Source of the DNA: an uncultured delta proteobacterium
GTDB lineage: Bacteria > Desulfobacterota > Binatia > Binatales > Binataceae
Length of the DNA: 64,000 bases
Assembly (NCBI GenBank): GCA_963755705.1
Contig: CAVWKW010000001.1
Span: 12,777 to 76,776 of the forward strand
Direction of reading: 5' to 3'
Shown: positions 58,851 through 64,000 of the stretch, one piece after another
How the letters are laid out: the number at the start of each line of letters is the position of its first letter
Position numbering within the stretch: position 1 is the first letter of the stretch
Translations under genes and position numbers: made by a program
Notes under the pieces: model-generated
Database searches by the model: none
What the model was told of the DNA's origin: nothing
Seen by the model: only the letters and a program-made list of their open reading frames with translations

Positions 58851-59768
58851 TTATCCGACCCGCGCGCGGTTGAGAAGCGCGAGAATCGGCGCAAGCGACG
58901 GGTCCGTTCCCGCTGCGCCGAACCGCTCCTGATACTCGCGCGCTCCTAGCGCGGTCGCGGCGGCGAAACGCTCGCGCTCGCCGGCGGCTACGACGCGCAG
59001 GCACTCCTCAAGCTCACGCGCACCCTCCGAACCGGTGTCGAACTCCTGCATCAGGTCGTCAACCGCAAGTCCATGCAGGCCGCCCATCAGGCATTCCGCG
59101 TAGTAGCCAATCTGGCCTGCGCGATCGATTTCGAGCGAAGTGATCGCAAGCGCCGCGTCGAGCGAATGCATCCGATCGATTCCGAATTCGCGCCGGCGCG
59201 AGACTACCGCGTCGTCGCCGCTGCCCTCGAAGCCCGAGCCGATCGCGACAATCGCGATGCGCCCGTCCCGGATCGGAACTGGATGAAATACGTAGCCGGG
59301 CGACGTGTAGCCAACCAATTCGCGCAGTGCACGGCGGTACTCGAGCAGATCGAAGCGCGTTTCTTGGGCGGTGCGCATCAGGAAATCACCGAGCCGCGCA
59401 CCTGCGTCGTCCGCAAGCCCGATCAGGCGCTCGAACATGGCGGGATCGTATTCCTCGCGCCGTGCGATCATCGCGGCCGAGCTGCGCTCGAAGGTCAAGA
59501 GGAGCCCGCCGAATTCGCCTGCGACGCCTGGGCCGCGGCCGCTACGCGCAGTGATCGAAACGGCGCGATCGACAGGCTCAATATCCATCGCAAGGTAGCT
59601 GCCGTGACTCGAAGGTTTCGCAAGGCCACGCCGCGCGTTGGCGATCAGCACTGGCTCAGCATCGATAGCCAACAGGCGGCTTGCTCCTCTGCGCCGCTCG
59701 GCCATCAGACCGTAACCGCTCATCAGCGATCCGTAGCCGAGTACGACCAGCCGCGCGTTGAGTTCCAC
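58851..59768 (-). CDS. Gamma-glutamylcyclotransferase-like hypothetical protein
   Basis: N-terminal VLGYGSLM and IARREEY motifs. Confidence 0.6.
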   Translation of the reverse strand: MELNARLVVLGYGSLMSGYGLMAERRRGASRLLAIDAEPVLIANARRGLAKPSSHGSYLAMDIEPVDRAVSITARSGRGPGVAGEFGGLLLTFERSSAAMIARREEYDPAMFERLIGLADDAGARLGDFLMRTAQETRFDLLEYRRALRELVGYTSPGYVFHPVPIRDGRIAIVAIGSGFEGSGDDAVVSRRREFGIDRMHSLDAALAITSLEIDRAGQIGYYAECLMGGLHGLAVDDLMQEFDTGSEGARELEECLRVVAAGERERFAAATALGAREYQERFGAAGTDPSLAPILALLNRARVG

Positions 59769-60884
59769 TCAGATATCTTCGACCGGCGGATAATATTTTT
59801 TAGCGCCGAGATCGTCCACCGCGTTCCAGAATTCGGGGCCCGACGCGCTCATCGGATTGGTCGGGTCCGTAAGCGACATTGCCTGCCGCTTATAATTCCA
59901 ACTCTCCGGCCGCAACGCGCGCGCGATTGCGAAATATTTCTGCGCCGCATCCGGAAAGCCGCATTCGTGCAGATATTCGCCGAGCCGGAAATTCGCCGCC
60001 GCGCGCACGTCGTCGTCACCGGGCGTATGCATCCGGCGCAGGACTTCGGCTTCGCTGAGCGCGAACCTGCTCGCGGGCCCGTTGCTGACCCAATCCCGGA
60101 TTGCGTTTTGATAGGCCAGCCGCTTGGCCTGCATCTCCTTCATCGACGCTTCGGGCATCGTGAAGGTCTTGCGGTCGAGGGTGCGAAACGCATCGGTCGA
60201 GCCAGCCGCCTCGCTCGGCCGCACAATACGTCCGCGTTCATCGATCCACACCGCAGTCGGTACGTTCACCATGTCGTAGAGTTCCGCGACAATATGGCGC
60301 ATGTCGATCACGCACGGATAAGTTGGTTTCGCGGCGGTAATCCACGGTTCGACCGCGGTCTTTCCGGCGCTGTCGAATGCCACCGCGATCGGAACAAACC
60401 CTTTTGGCCCCAGTTCTTCGTACATCGCCTGCCACACGGGCAGGTCCATTCGGCATCCTCACCATGAAGCCCAGGAGACCAGCAGAACCTTCTTGCCCCG
60501 ATATTCCGACAGCGAATGCATCCGTCCCGCGAGGTCCGGCAGTGAGAAATCCAGCGCGTCGAGCGACTTGAGCGTGCGCGCGCGCTCGGCCGCAGCCTCT
60601 CCGACGCACCACGCGTGATGCTCTTCGTCGGCCACCATCGGCTGTCCGAGCAACTTCGCAATCGCGGTAAGGTTGTAGCGATCGCCAGCCTCGAAGTCGC
60701 CGACACGCGCGGGCGGCACTGGAACGCAGACCTCGCCTTTGCAGAACCCCTCGGGCTTGAAGGTCCACCCCGTCGTGCGCTCCAGATCGTCGGCGCGAAG
60801 CCATAGCTCTGCGCCGCGAACTTCGGCCGGAATACCGGTCGTTACTTGTTCGCCATAGATCAGACTGATTGGAGTTTCGGGCAT
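59769..60884 (-). CDS. TlpA/redoxin family protein, probable selenoprotein (UGA at 60461-60459, WASW-U-GC)
   Basis: ORFs 60459-60884 and 59769-60449 are in frame, joined by TGA GGA TGC CGA; DFSLPDL..HSLSEYRGKKVLLVSWASWUGCRMDLPVW...NVPTAVWIDERGRIV; SECIS-like hairpin follows. Confidence 0.87.
60428..60458 (-). promoter_or_regulatory. Putative bacterial SECIS element
   Basis: mRNA UGA-GGAUGCCGAAUGGA-CCUGCC-CGUGU-GGCAGG: perfect 6-bp stem, 20 nt between UGA and loop, G at loop position 2. Confidence 0.65.
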
Positions 60885-60943
60885 AGATGCTCTCCCGGAC
60901 GCGCTATCGCGCCGCGATTATCCTAGCGCCTGCGCCACAGCGG

Positions 60944-63900
60944 TCATATCCAGAGTATCACGCCGGTTGCGGGTTTTCCGGTCGCCGCGCGGATTGCGCG
61001 CAGATAAATTGCGATCTGTGCGCGATACTCGGGAAGTCGCGCCGACAAGTCGGCGTCGGTTTTGAAATCGACGATCGTCCAGCTCGTTGCTGCTCCGGTT
61101 TCGGTGCGAAACGCCAGGTCTGCGATTCCTTCGGCCGTGGTGCCATCGTCGAGCGTCGCGAGGACGGGATATTCGCGGCGGATCTCGGTTGCGCTGGCTG
61201 CCGCGCGAATCACCGCCGAGCCGAGCGCGCTCGCGACCGCTTCTGCCGCGGTCTCTGCGTCGTCGGTGTCCGCACCGACCATCCGCGCAACGCTCGATAC
61301 GACGCGTTCGATCTCCTGGCGCGGCGCGTCGAAGCGGATTCGCAGCATCGTCTCGTGTACCAGGATACCGAAGAGTTTTAGACGCGCCCGCGATCGGTCG
61401 CGCGCAATCTCCTCTATACGAATCTCGCCGCGACCGGCGTCAGCGTCATGAGGCATCACGCCAGACTCCGACGCCGCGGTCACACTGACTACTTTGATCG
61501 TCGGCACGGCGCCGTGCGCGAGCGACGCGGCCCGAGCCTCGCTCCACGCGCGATGCGCCTCATCGCCGCGTTTCGAGATCTCCCCGCTCTGGTCGGCTTC
61601 GAGCAGCACGCTCTGGCGCAGTCCCATCGCTTCTTTCACGTCGAGGACAAGCCTGGATGGATCCCACCATACGACGCGATGCGCCCCCGCCTGCGCGCGA
61701 TACGATCCCGGCGCGACCGAGCGTGTCGGCGCGGGCGCTCGCGAGGGCCGTACGCGCACCGAGTCTTCGCCGAACTCGGGGCATCCCGCGGGTTTTCGGC
61801 TAAGCGGTGCTCGGCGATACTTTTGTTCCGGATAGATGACGGGATTGAGCCGCGCGAGCCATCCATCATAAGCGCCGTCGCCCAGGGTGGGCACGATCAG
61901 CAGGTCGCGCGCACGTGTCGTCGCGACGTAGAGCAGGCGAATCGCCTCTTCGACGTCGCGGCGATGCTCTTCCTCCTGATCCTCGAGCAGTTCGCGCGGA
62001 GCGCATCCTGCTATTTGCAGCGCTGCGAGTCCGCGCTCCGGATCGATATAACGGGTGGGCTCGCCGCGGGTTTCGTTGCAGGTCAGGTCGGCCAGGATCA
62101 CGACCGGAAATTCGAGTCCCTTCGCTCGATGCACCGTCATGATGCGGACGCCTTCGGTTCCTTCTTCGGCCAGCGGCGTCTCGCTCGCCTCGTCGCGTTC
62201 GGCGCGCGCTTCGAGTTCATCGACGAAGCCGCGAAACGAGGTCGGCCGGTTGCGCGCCTCGTAGCGACGCGCCTGATCCATCAGGCGCATGATATTGGCA
62301 AGCGCCTGATCGCCCGTCGGCCAGATGGCGACGCCCGCATGCGCGCGCGTTTGCGCGAGCGCGCGCGCCAGCGTCTGCGCGATAGGCCGGCGGTTGCGCT
62401 CGCGATGCAGCTCCAGGATCATCGCGCGTGCCCCGAGCACTGGGCGCAGCCTGCCATCCGCGTCGTCGGGCGGGTTCGGCCACAGGCTGAAGCCGCCGGC
62501 CGCCTCTCGATATTCGAGCAGCAGATCGTCGCCGAGCGAAAAAAACGCGCCGCGAAGAGTCGCGAACACCGCCAGCTCGTCGTCGGGGCGCTCGATTGCC
62601 GCGAGCAGGTTGCGCACCGAGGTTACTTCTTCGCGATCGTTGAACGAGCCGCCCTTCACCAGCACGTGCGGCAGATGCCGCGCCTCGAGCGCGCGCAGAT
62701 ACGGTCGCGTTACGTCGCGTCCATACGAGTTCAGGCGGCGAAATAAAATACAAATGTGGCGCGGCGCGATCGCTACGCGGCGCTCCGGCGCCTCGCGCTC
62801 GGTCACGGTCCATCCGCTTTCCTTCACCATCCATTTCGCGAACGCCGCAATCGCGTCGGGCAGCGATTCCTCGATCCTCCAATCCGTCACGCGGCCAAAG
62901 TCGCCGTACGGATCCGGCACCGGCAGCGCGACGATCGAGGGTTGCGCGTCCGGGTCCAGCCGCGTCGATACCAGCGGCGCGTATCCCGGCTGAGTCGGCG
63001 AGTCGGCCGGCATCAGCGGCGCGAACGCCGCGTTGATCATCGCATGGAGCTCGGGCGTCGCGCGGAAACTCACCGTCAGATACAGGATGCGCGCACCCTT
63101 GCTCACGAGGCTGCGCTTGACCTCCTGGTAGAGCGCGACATCGGCGCGGCGAAAACGGTAGATCGATTGCTTGGGGTCGCCCACGATAAACAGCTTGCCA
63201 GGAATCGGGCGCGCCGCGCGCCAATCGTGGGTAGCGGGATCATCGGCGGCGAGCAGCAGCAGAATTTCGGCTTGCAGTGGATCGGTATCCTGAAACTCGT
63301 CGATAAAAATATGCGTGAAGCGGTTCTGCAGCTCGGCGCGCACGGCCGCGTTGTCACGCACCAGGTCGCGCGCGACCAGCAGCAGATCGAGAAAGTCCAG
63401 TTGCCCCTCGCGCCGCTTGATCTCGTCGTAGATCTCGACGATCGGCCATAGCTCTTCGCGCAAGAGCGGGGAAAGATTAGCCCCCGCGTCGCGGCGCATC
63501 CGTGCAAGCCGCACGCGCAGCTCTCCGCGGCGGCGAAAGATTTCCTCGCGCTCGATTCCTCCCATGCCTGCGCCGAAACCCTTCCAATCCCAGCGCCTGC
63601 CGCCGCCGAGCGTCAGCAGCACCGCCTCGAGCGCGTCGTAATCGCGCCCGCGAACCGCCTCCAGCCGCATCGCTTCGAGCACAGGACGCGCAATTTCTTC
63701 GAGGCTCTTCGCGAGCCAGTCTCCCGGCTCGCCGTCGCGGGCGAGATTCGCGAGCGCGGCGATCTCGGCAACGATCGCGTCGATCTCCTGGTCGCGTGCG
63801 AACGCTTGCGGCGCCCACCTGGCGGTGAAATCGCGCCACGCGAGCAGCTCCTCGGCGGCGCGGCGCGCGATCGCGCGCGGTCCGTCCCGGCTGACTGACT

Positions 63901-64000
63901 CGCGGCGGCGCAGCAACCGGCGCATCCCCTCGCCCGGATTCGCGAGCGCGCCTTCGAACCAGCGCGAGAACGCCAGCTCGAGGATCGCGTCGGCGGTGTC
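60944..64000 (-). CDS. addA: UvrD-type helicase/nuclease AddA (5' end beyond window)
   Basis: IFIDEFQDT, VGDPKQSIYRFRRAD, MTVHRAKGLEF, LLYVATTRARD, C-terminal PD-(D/E)xK region (GIADL..IVDFKT); frame stays open to 64000. Confidence 0.9.
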   Translation of the reverse strand, partial: DTADAILELAFSRWFEGALANPGEGMRRLLRRRESVSRDGPRAIARRAAEELLAWRDFTARWAPQAFARDQEIDAIVAEIAALANLARDGEPGDWLAKSLEEIARPVLEAMRLEAVRGRDYDALEAVLLTLGGGRRWDWKGFGAGMGGIEREEIFRRRGELRVRLARMRRDAGANLSPLLREELWPIVEIYDEIKRREGQLDFLDLLLVARDLVRDNAAVRAELQNRFTHIFIDEFQDTDPLQAEILLLLAADDPATHDWRAARPIPGKLFIVGDPKQSIYRFRRADVALYQEVKRSLVSKGARILYLTVSFRATPELHAMINAAFAPLMPADSPTQPGYAPLVSTRLDPDAQPSIVALPVPDPYGDFGRVTDWRIEESLPDAIAAFAKWMVKESGWTVTEREAPERRVAIAPRHICILFRRLNSYGRDVTRPYLRALEARHLPHVLVKGGSFNDREEVTSVRNLLAAIERPDDELAVFATLRGAFFSLGDDLLLEYREAAGGFSLWPNPPDDADGRLRPVLGARAMILELHRERNRRPIAQTLARALAQTRAHAGVAIWPTGDQALANIMRLMDQARRYEARNRPTSFRGFVDELEARAERDEASETPLAEEGTEGVRIMTVHRAKGLEFPVVILADLTCNETRGEPTRYIDPERGLAALQIAGCAPRELLEDQEEEHRRDVEEAIRLLYVATTRARDLLIVPTLGDGAYDGWLARLNPVIYPEQKYRRAPLSRKPAGCPEFGEDSVRVRPSRAPAPTRSVAPGSYRAQAGAHRVVWWDPSRLVLDVKEAMGLRQSVLLEADQSGEISKRGDEAHRAWSEARAASLAHGAVPTIKVVSVTAASESGVMPHDADAGRGEIRIEEIARDRSRARLKLFGILVHETMLRIRFDAPRQEIERVVSSVARMVGADTDDAETAAEAVASALGSAVIRAAASATEIRREYPVLATLDDGTTAEGIADLAFRTETGAATSWTIVDFKTDADLSARLPEYRAQIAIYLRAIRAATGKPATGVILWI

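Follow-up and report, generated by a model that had tools for sequence, protein, structure and literature searches.

Selenoproteins that carry selenocysteine (Sec) in a U-G-C motif and are classed as Prx-like or TlpA-like are already in print (PMC2398784, PMC13188914). A table of the GOS paper files the UGC forms as "Prx-like" (PMC2398784), and a table of the Sargasso Sea paper contains one UXC Prx-like sequence (PMC1088965). These published UGC entries have the thioredoxin fold (pfam00578 / cd02966) and the placement of Sec in U-G-C in common with the protein described here; as given in PMC2398784 and PMC13188914 the entries carry no domain architecture, and their likeness to our three-domain form rests on motif and fold. 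NCBIfam also holds an equivalog model for such proteins, NF041054.1 ("WAxxUGC_long, ResA-like WAxxUGC motif-containing protein"). Since this model is named for the motif and UGC selenoproteins have been published, the family is already known and the present finding is not new; with both family and motif curated and published, it opens no new question either. Our literature search returned no paper naming "WAxxUGC", no paper joining "selenoprotein" and "Binatia", and no assay of U-x-C chemistry. The main text of Peng et al. 2016 (PMC5029168) makes no mention of UGC, and its supplements may list family members.

The member reported here lies in a 64,000-nucleotide stretch of DNA (the window) from an uncultured Binataceae-type bacterium. 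On the minus strand, positions 59769..60884 hold two table-11 open reading frames (ORFs) in one shared frame: an upstream ORF of 141 residues that ends in W-A-S-W (60459..60884, including its TGA), and a downstream ORF of 226 residues that starts at ATG 60449 (59769..60449). Taken together, 60884..59772 is one frame of 371 codons with a single in-frame TGA at 60459..60461. Reading this TGA as U affords a 371-residue protein, ...LLVSWASW-U-GC-RMDLPVWQAMYEE... (residues around the Sec codon: ...SWASW-U-GC-RMDLPVWQ...), just as an earlier note on this DNA had proposed. The gene contains no further stop and no frameshift, and its terminal stop is also TGA (59771..59769). The start ATG at 60884 aligns with the Met of close orthologues, and a putative Shine–Dalgarno sequence, GGGAGAG (60890..60896, minus strand), stands 5 nt before it.

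From these data and those below we conclude with high confidence that the two ORFs are a single gene (59772..60884, minus strand) which encodes a selenoprotein of the NF041054 family with Sec at codon 142. The support for Sec in this protein is comparative throughout; Sec insertion itself is inferred, as are substrate, chemistry and the role in the cell. Gene callers that use table 11 report the gene as two separate "hypothetical" proteins, and joining these halves restores a redox enzyme. The gene also documents an active Sec system and one client gene in Binataceae-type uncultured bacteria.

The translated protein scores 346.5 bits with NF041054, above the curated cut-off of 300, with residues 29–368 aligned to positions 8–352 of the 354 model positions. 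Run on genome DNA, the same model scores 339.9 bits and reports "1 TGA". The W-A-x-x-U-G-C motif is present as W-A-S-W-U-G-C, with U encoded by the TGA at 60461..60459. With the same motif and the same length class, the protein is an ordinary member of the family; about 21 extra N-terminal residues before the start of the model are the one difference that we found.

An AlphaFold2 model of the 371-residue protein, computed from a 32-row alignment with Cys in place of Sec, comprises three domains (pLDDT 91.7, pTM 0.88). Pfam recognizes the central one only. This domain (residues ~106–225; 60210..60569, minus strand) is a thioredoxin-fold redoxin according to Pfam (AhpC-TSA, 1.5e-16; Redoxin, 1e-10), Foldseek (ResA 1st9, E 1.3e-10) and VIA (3gl3_A, Z 15.1, rmsd 2.4 over 140 residues; 2f9s_A, Z 14.3; 1jfu_A, Z 12.0). 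By these VIA matches the domain has the thioredoxin fold with the TlpA-type insertion, and the solved folds nearest to the model are DsbE, ResA and TlpA. In the model, U142 of the U142-G143-C144 motif is placed immediately before helix 143–161. Pro209 of the conserved V208-P209 pair occupies the usual cis-Pro site. A phmmer search of solved structures aligned "WASWCG.CR" to "WATWCPPCR" and similar sequences, so that U142 corresponds to the first Cys and C144 to the second Cys of CxxC with one residue missing between them. The idea that the stop falls at the position of the attacking Cys of the thioredoxin fold is borne out by this alignment. Compared with C-P-P-C and C-P-H-C, U-G-C has a one-residue gap, and a C-x-x-C active site in the strict sense is absent.

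The N-terminal domain (residues 1–105; 60570..60884, minus strand) contains the C-K-G-E-V-C motif that had been noticed earlier, at residues 48–53, and Cys48 and Cys53 are invariant in 31 aligned N-terminal domains. Folded alone, this domain reaches a pLDDT of 86.5. It matches no Pfam family and only unannotated clusters in the ESM Atlas; Foldseek found no solved structure at E ≤ 0.001, and the best VIA matches (5h3k_A, Z 6.3; usher N-domains, 5.6–5.7) are below the level deemed meaningful. As modelled, this CxxxxC domain appears to have no clear solved relative. The C-terminal domain (residues 226–371; 59772..60209, minus strand) is predicted to be helical, with helices at 245–271, 278–284, 290–307, 311–324, 329–339 and 350–358. 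The extra N-terminal domain of the earlier note stands; its "TPR-like tail" finds little backing, with only sub-threshold TPR matches in Pfam (TPR_2, E 0.4; 11.4 bits, cut-off 27).

The closest characterized relatives are ResA, StoA, TlpA and CcmG (DsbE). They share the fold of the central domain (Z 12–15, rmsd 2.3–2.8 Å over 133–141 residues; 25–26% identity to ResA), the position of the nucleophile and a Pro at the cis-Pro site (Pro209). They differ in having C-x-x-C where our protein has U-x-C, and our protein has additional N- and C-terminal domains. It scores below the curated cut-offs for ResA (68.4 vs 170 bits), StoA (50.6 vs 210) and TlpA (44.7 vs 230). By eye, the N-terminus MPETPISLIYGEQV... 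contains no hydrophobic stretch, signal peptide or membrane anchor, and because no signal peptide is apparent the protein is probably cytoplasmic, unlike ResA and TlpA.

With regard to function alone, the protein could instead be a Sec peroxidase of the peroxiredoxin-like or GPx-like type and not a thiol-disulfide oxidoreductase. The best Pfam match is indeed AhpC-TSA (1.5e-16), GSHPx gives a sub-threshold match (24.9 bits vs 27), Bcp and Prx structures score Z 11–12, and the filing of UGC forms as "Prx-like" in the GOS table (PMC2398784) points in the same direction. On the other hand, NCBIfam and solved structures alike place ResA, StoA, TlpA and DsbE nearest, and Sec occupies the first-Cys position of CxxC. 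Moreover, the Sec-Prx motif is PxxxTxxU (PMC13188914), and L-L-V-S-W-A-S-W-U has neither the Pro nor the Thr of P-x-x-x-T-x-x-C/U. We consider a peroxidase role an unlikely, minority alternative.

As a thiol-disulfide oxidoreductase, the reading that we prefer, the protein would have Sec142 as the counterpart of the first, attacking Cys and Cys144 as that of the resolving Cys, with one residue fewer between the two than in CxxC. Sec142, which stands where the active-site helix begins, would use its selenolate to attack a substrate disulfide or other oxidised sulfur, Cys144 would resolve the mixed intermediate with formation of a tight intramolecular U-x-C selenenylsulfide, and a thiol partner would re-reduce the Sec142–Cys144 selenenylsulfide. 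An indication of what such spacing may mean comes from Cys-Gly-Cys peptides, the disulfide of which has a potential (E0' −0.167 V) near that of PDI, with thioredoxin far below (−0.270 V; bioRxiv 10.64898/2026.01.27.701630). These PDI mimics share with our protein the C-x-C spacing at a helix N-terminus; they are synthetic, sulfur-only peptides, which makes this an analogy of chemistry and not a relationship. Given the PDI-like potential of the peptide, the family may by analogy serve in oxidation or isomerisation, or else reduce one particular oxidised substrate rapidly. A more ambitious and rather doubtful reading takes the long UGC form as a self-contained cytoplasmic redox relay, that is, a three-domain Sec-dependent isomerase or repair enzyme. 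Cys48/Cys53 might then shuttle electrons to the strained Sec142–Cys144 selenenylsulfide, or hold a metal or substrate, and the helical tail might bind the client, a combination that we regard as improbable when taken as a whole. If true, it would describe a three-domain Sec-dependent enzyme without characterized counterpart.

To follow the in-frame TGA beyond the window, the NF041054 model was run over 41 related genomes. It matched above the cut-off in 17 of these, and in all 17 the match contained one in-frame TGA, either within a single match or within one of several pieces joined in the same frame. In an even sample across the phylum, 6 of 401 genomes gave a match (E ≤ 1e-40), and all 6 belong to the class of the window genome. 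A scan of GTDB species genomes added 23 loci, the titles of which name Candidatus Binataceae or Binatia MAGs. Relatives at 40–47% identity were found in MAGs that bear the labels Rokuibacteriota, Actinomycetota, Spirochaetales, Pseudomonadota and Deltaproteobacteria. The resulting orthologue set of 41 loci contained 8 duplicates (L026, L027, L030, L031, L032, L033, L040 and L048), the removal of which left 33 distinct sequences. One of those retained, L020, belongs to a genome marked as unpublished; around the TGA it is identical to the public L032, so that none of our claims hinges on it. In another locus, L049 (CAWHTE010000004.1, 1505–1795), the N-terminal third reads as low-complexity Arg/Ser-rich text next to a remainder that aligns well, which suggests a frameshift in that assembly.

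The Sec column reads TGA in 32 of the 33 distinct sequences and TGC in the remaining one (L022). The TGA-bearing orthologues stem from independent assemblies, and their identity to the window protein lies between 89% and 35%. TGA in this one column of nearly all distinct sequences is more than chance. The earlier note had looked to other TGA-containing orthologues and to Cys homologues for confirmation, and both exist: next to L022, 46 of the 150 best library representatives described below have the C-G-C form. An in-frame UGA shared by orthologues, paired with Cys at that position in homologues, is a general mark of bacterial selenoproteins and is seen here.

HMMER, run in full against 1.84 billion cluster representatives, returned 127 matches at E ≤ 1e-30. 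Of the 150 best, 54 extend across the U column, where 46 have CGC, 5 have another CxC, and one each has SEC, CES and RGC. The Cys-type C-G-C homologues have the same three-domain length and the same context (W-A-S-W-C-G-C-R), with Cys replacing Sec. Because most of the column-spanning sequences among these best 150 contain CxC, this motif looks ancestral in the family, in which Cys forms are common. Another 17 of the 150 end at the W just before the U column and 43 start no more than 9 residues past it; the other 36 are different pieces or multidomain redoxins. These 60 halves are the signature of gene callers splitting Sec genes, and they indicate that Sec forms of this family are routinely split. 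Four Cys-type (CxC) representatives (P0010, P0011, P0013 and P0109) have N-termini that by eye resemble hydrophobic leaders. This observation suggests that part of the family may be exported, while the Sec form in the window looks cytoplasmic.

Downstream of the UGA, the RNA is predicted to form a bacterial SECIS hairpin (60428..60444, minus strand) with a 6-bp stem, CCUGCC/GGCAGG, and the apical loop CGUGU at 60438..60434. Counted from the U of the UGA, CCUGCC-CGUGU-GGCAGG corresponds to nucleotides 18–34, and the loop begins after a spacing of 20 nt from the UGA. The bSECIS consensus model in section 5 and the legend of Fig. 2A of PMC13188914 describes a loop of 3–9 nt, a stem of 4–16 bp, a G in the first two loop positions, a distance of 16–37 nt from the UGA, and a minimum free energy (MFE) of −7.5 kcal/mol or lower. 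With a 5-nt loop, G followed by U at its second position, a 6-bp stem, a spacing of 20 nt and −9.3 kcal/mol, the window hairpin agrees with the criteria given there, and the suggestion of a SECIS-type hairpin just 3' of the UGA thus holds by published standards.

All 33 distinct sequences of the orthologue set are able to form the stem, and every change within it preserves pairing. In L021, C18–G34 has become G18–C34, a double compensatory change that alters both amino acids; it is the only such change among the 33. Wobble-compatible changes occur as U22·G30 in L021, L023 and L041, and as U18·G34 in L017. The loop is CGUGU in the majority, with AGUCU, GGUCU, GGUGU and CGGGU as variants; in the 5 sequences with AGUCU an extra A–U pair leaves GUC as the loop. 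The sole Cys orthologue, L022, retains an intact stem, and its loop, CGCCU, is without the G[G/U] dinucleotide.

The strongest signal for the predicted hairpin is codon usage in the stem. Among 118 conserved degenerate codon columns, only 5 have an entropy of 0.2 or less, and three of these five are stem codons, precisely those with a third base that takes part in stem pairing. Asp+5 is encoded by GAC in 31 sequences and by GAT in 1. Leu+6 is CTG in 33 of 33, compared with a top-codon share of 0.42–0.76 in the other 14 conserved Leu columns, and Gln+10 is CAG in 33 of 33. Third positions that fall within the loop or beyond the stem (Pro+7, Val+8, Ala+11) vary freely. Since the Cys orthologue keeps the stem as well, the D-L-P-x-W-Q peptide and a G+C codon bias may account for part of this conservation. 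The 33 sequences are kin and 17 of them have an identical hairpin, so that counts over orthologues overstate the independent support. Taken as a whole, the 65 nt after the UGA fold no better than shuffled sequences (z 0.12; 106 of 200 shuffles fold as well), and an Rfam scan of 59000..61500 (E ≤ 10) returned no SECIS family and three weak unrelated matches. An alternative hairpin of nucleotides 7–32, which is the MFE structure in L005, L013, L017 and L019, was rejected since substitutions break its pairing in six orthologues (L010, L011, L012, L014, L018 and L020).

These data bear on the possibility that the locus contains two genes, one for a 141-residue protein that ends at the TGA and one for a 226-residue protein that starts at ATG 60449. 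The earlier note had itself raised internal initiation at this ATG, and the G-A-G-G-A sequence 6 nt upstream of it is real. Gene callers yield just such halves (in the best 150 representatives, 17 from the N-terminal and 43 from the C-terminal side), and under selenium scarcity some UGA termination is expected as a by-product. However, at the codon of ATG 60449 only 15 of the 33 sequences have Met and the others have Leu, Phe, Glu, Tyr or His; GAGGA depends on a GGA codon for Gly, which is present in only 16 of 33. Internal initiation is therefore not a conserved feature of the family, as opposed to the frame and the TGA column, which are conserved in 32 of 33. In addition, the Cys forms are single polypeptides, and two genes would cut the thioredoxin fold right at its active site and leave it without its nucleophile. 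Hence, we consider two separate genes very improbable.

The single gene for a selenoprotein that we propose would depend on a Sec pathway, and the window genome (97.2% complete, 6 contigs) contains one. We found selA (522.7 bits), a SelB wing domain (72.7 bits) within a 682-codon frame, and a Sec-type selD (377.2 bits; G000:C5:426627-427553, outside the window) that directly follows the selB frame. This selD has one in-frame TGA of its own (..CKAAG*AGKLG..) where the active-site Cys would be encoded, from which we predict that the selenophosphate synthetase of this genome is itself a selenoprotein. A tRNA-Sec is located at C1:197136-197227 with 70.4 bits against the Rfam gathering score of 47, and aragorn agrees. 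The search for selA, selB, selC and selD that the earlier note had proposed thus ends with selA, selB, selD and tRNA-Sec all present. The same note had named a genome without Sec machinery, together with a TGA unique to this sequence, as the sign of a nonsense mutation or error; we found the machinery present and the TGA in 32 of 33 sequences.

Further tRNA-Sec calls were made outside the window, at G000:C1:1712626-1712710 and G000:C2:713642-713727. Aragorn reports a second tRNA-SeC(tca) of 85 nt which is absent from the ten matches to Rfam RF01852, and the second of these Rfam matches scores 49 bits, barely above the 47-bit threshold. Both extra calls are probably other long-arm tRNAs. A second match in this genome that resembled a TGA-containing redoxin (L009) turned out to be an ordinary Cys gene of the Bcp-like type, in which the TGA is its own stop.

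With this pathway, SelB carrying Sec-tRNA(Sec) would be recruited by the hairpin that starts 14 nt past the UGA, selenocysteine would be inserted at codon 142, and the second TGA, 229 codons later, would terminate translation.

It is also conceivable that the UGA is read by a tRNA other than tRNA-Sec, for example with near-cognate insertion of Trp or Cys. Low-level near-cognate read-through of UGA does occur in bacteria, and this general behavior is what speaks for such decoding; nothing specific to the locus does. TGA is the commonest stop of open frames of at least 400 codons in this genome (920 of 1768), the window gene itself ends with it, and with so many long frames ending in TGA this codon is not reassigned genome-wide. 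The homologues without TGA have Cys in this column, as expected for Sec/Cys pairs, and the locus comes with a SECIS-type hairpin and a complete Sec pathway. We deem non-Sec decoding highly unlikely. A further possibility is a pseudogene, or a redoxin gene of the Cys type (CGC) that was missequenced or misassembled: only one base separates TGA from TGC or TGT, the assembly is of the metagenome type, and the related records are MAGs. The recurrence of this TGA in 32 of the 33 distinct sequences, which were assembled independently and span 89% to 35% identity, refutes this in practice, and with no other stop or frameshift in the gene and with SECIS and Sec machinery present we find it scarcely credible.

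Turning from the selenoprotein gene to its surroundings, the upstream neighbor (60944..64000, minus strand) encodes a large UvrD/REP-type helicase, AddA/PcrA-like, with a C-terminal PD-(D/E)XK nuclease domain, and extends beyond the window. The order UvrD-like / UGC / 305-aa / PTPS is retained only among the closer Binataceae-type loci; searches with the UvrD-like, 305-aa and PTPS proteins did not find these neighbors in 15 divergent loci, and since the order is absent there the neighborhood is of no help in assigning a function. In the divergent loci, high G+C content gives rise to long spurious frames on both strands. On the other side of the UGC gene lies an ORF of 305 residues (58851..59768, minus strand), which matches no Pfam family. 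In 16 other Binataceae-type loci this ORF again comes after the UGC gene and precedes a PTPS/QueD-like gene. Its GTG start is the base after the TGA stop of the UGC gene, and the two are possibly co-transcribed.
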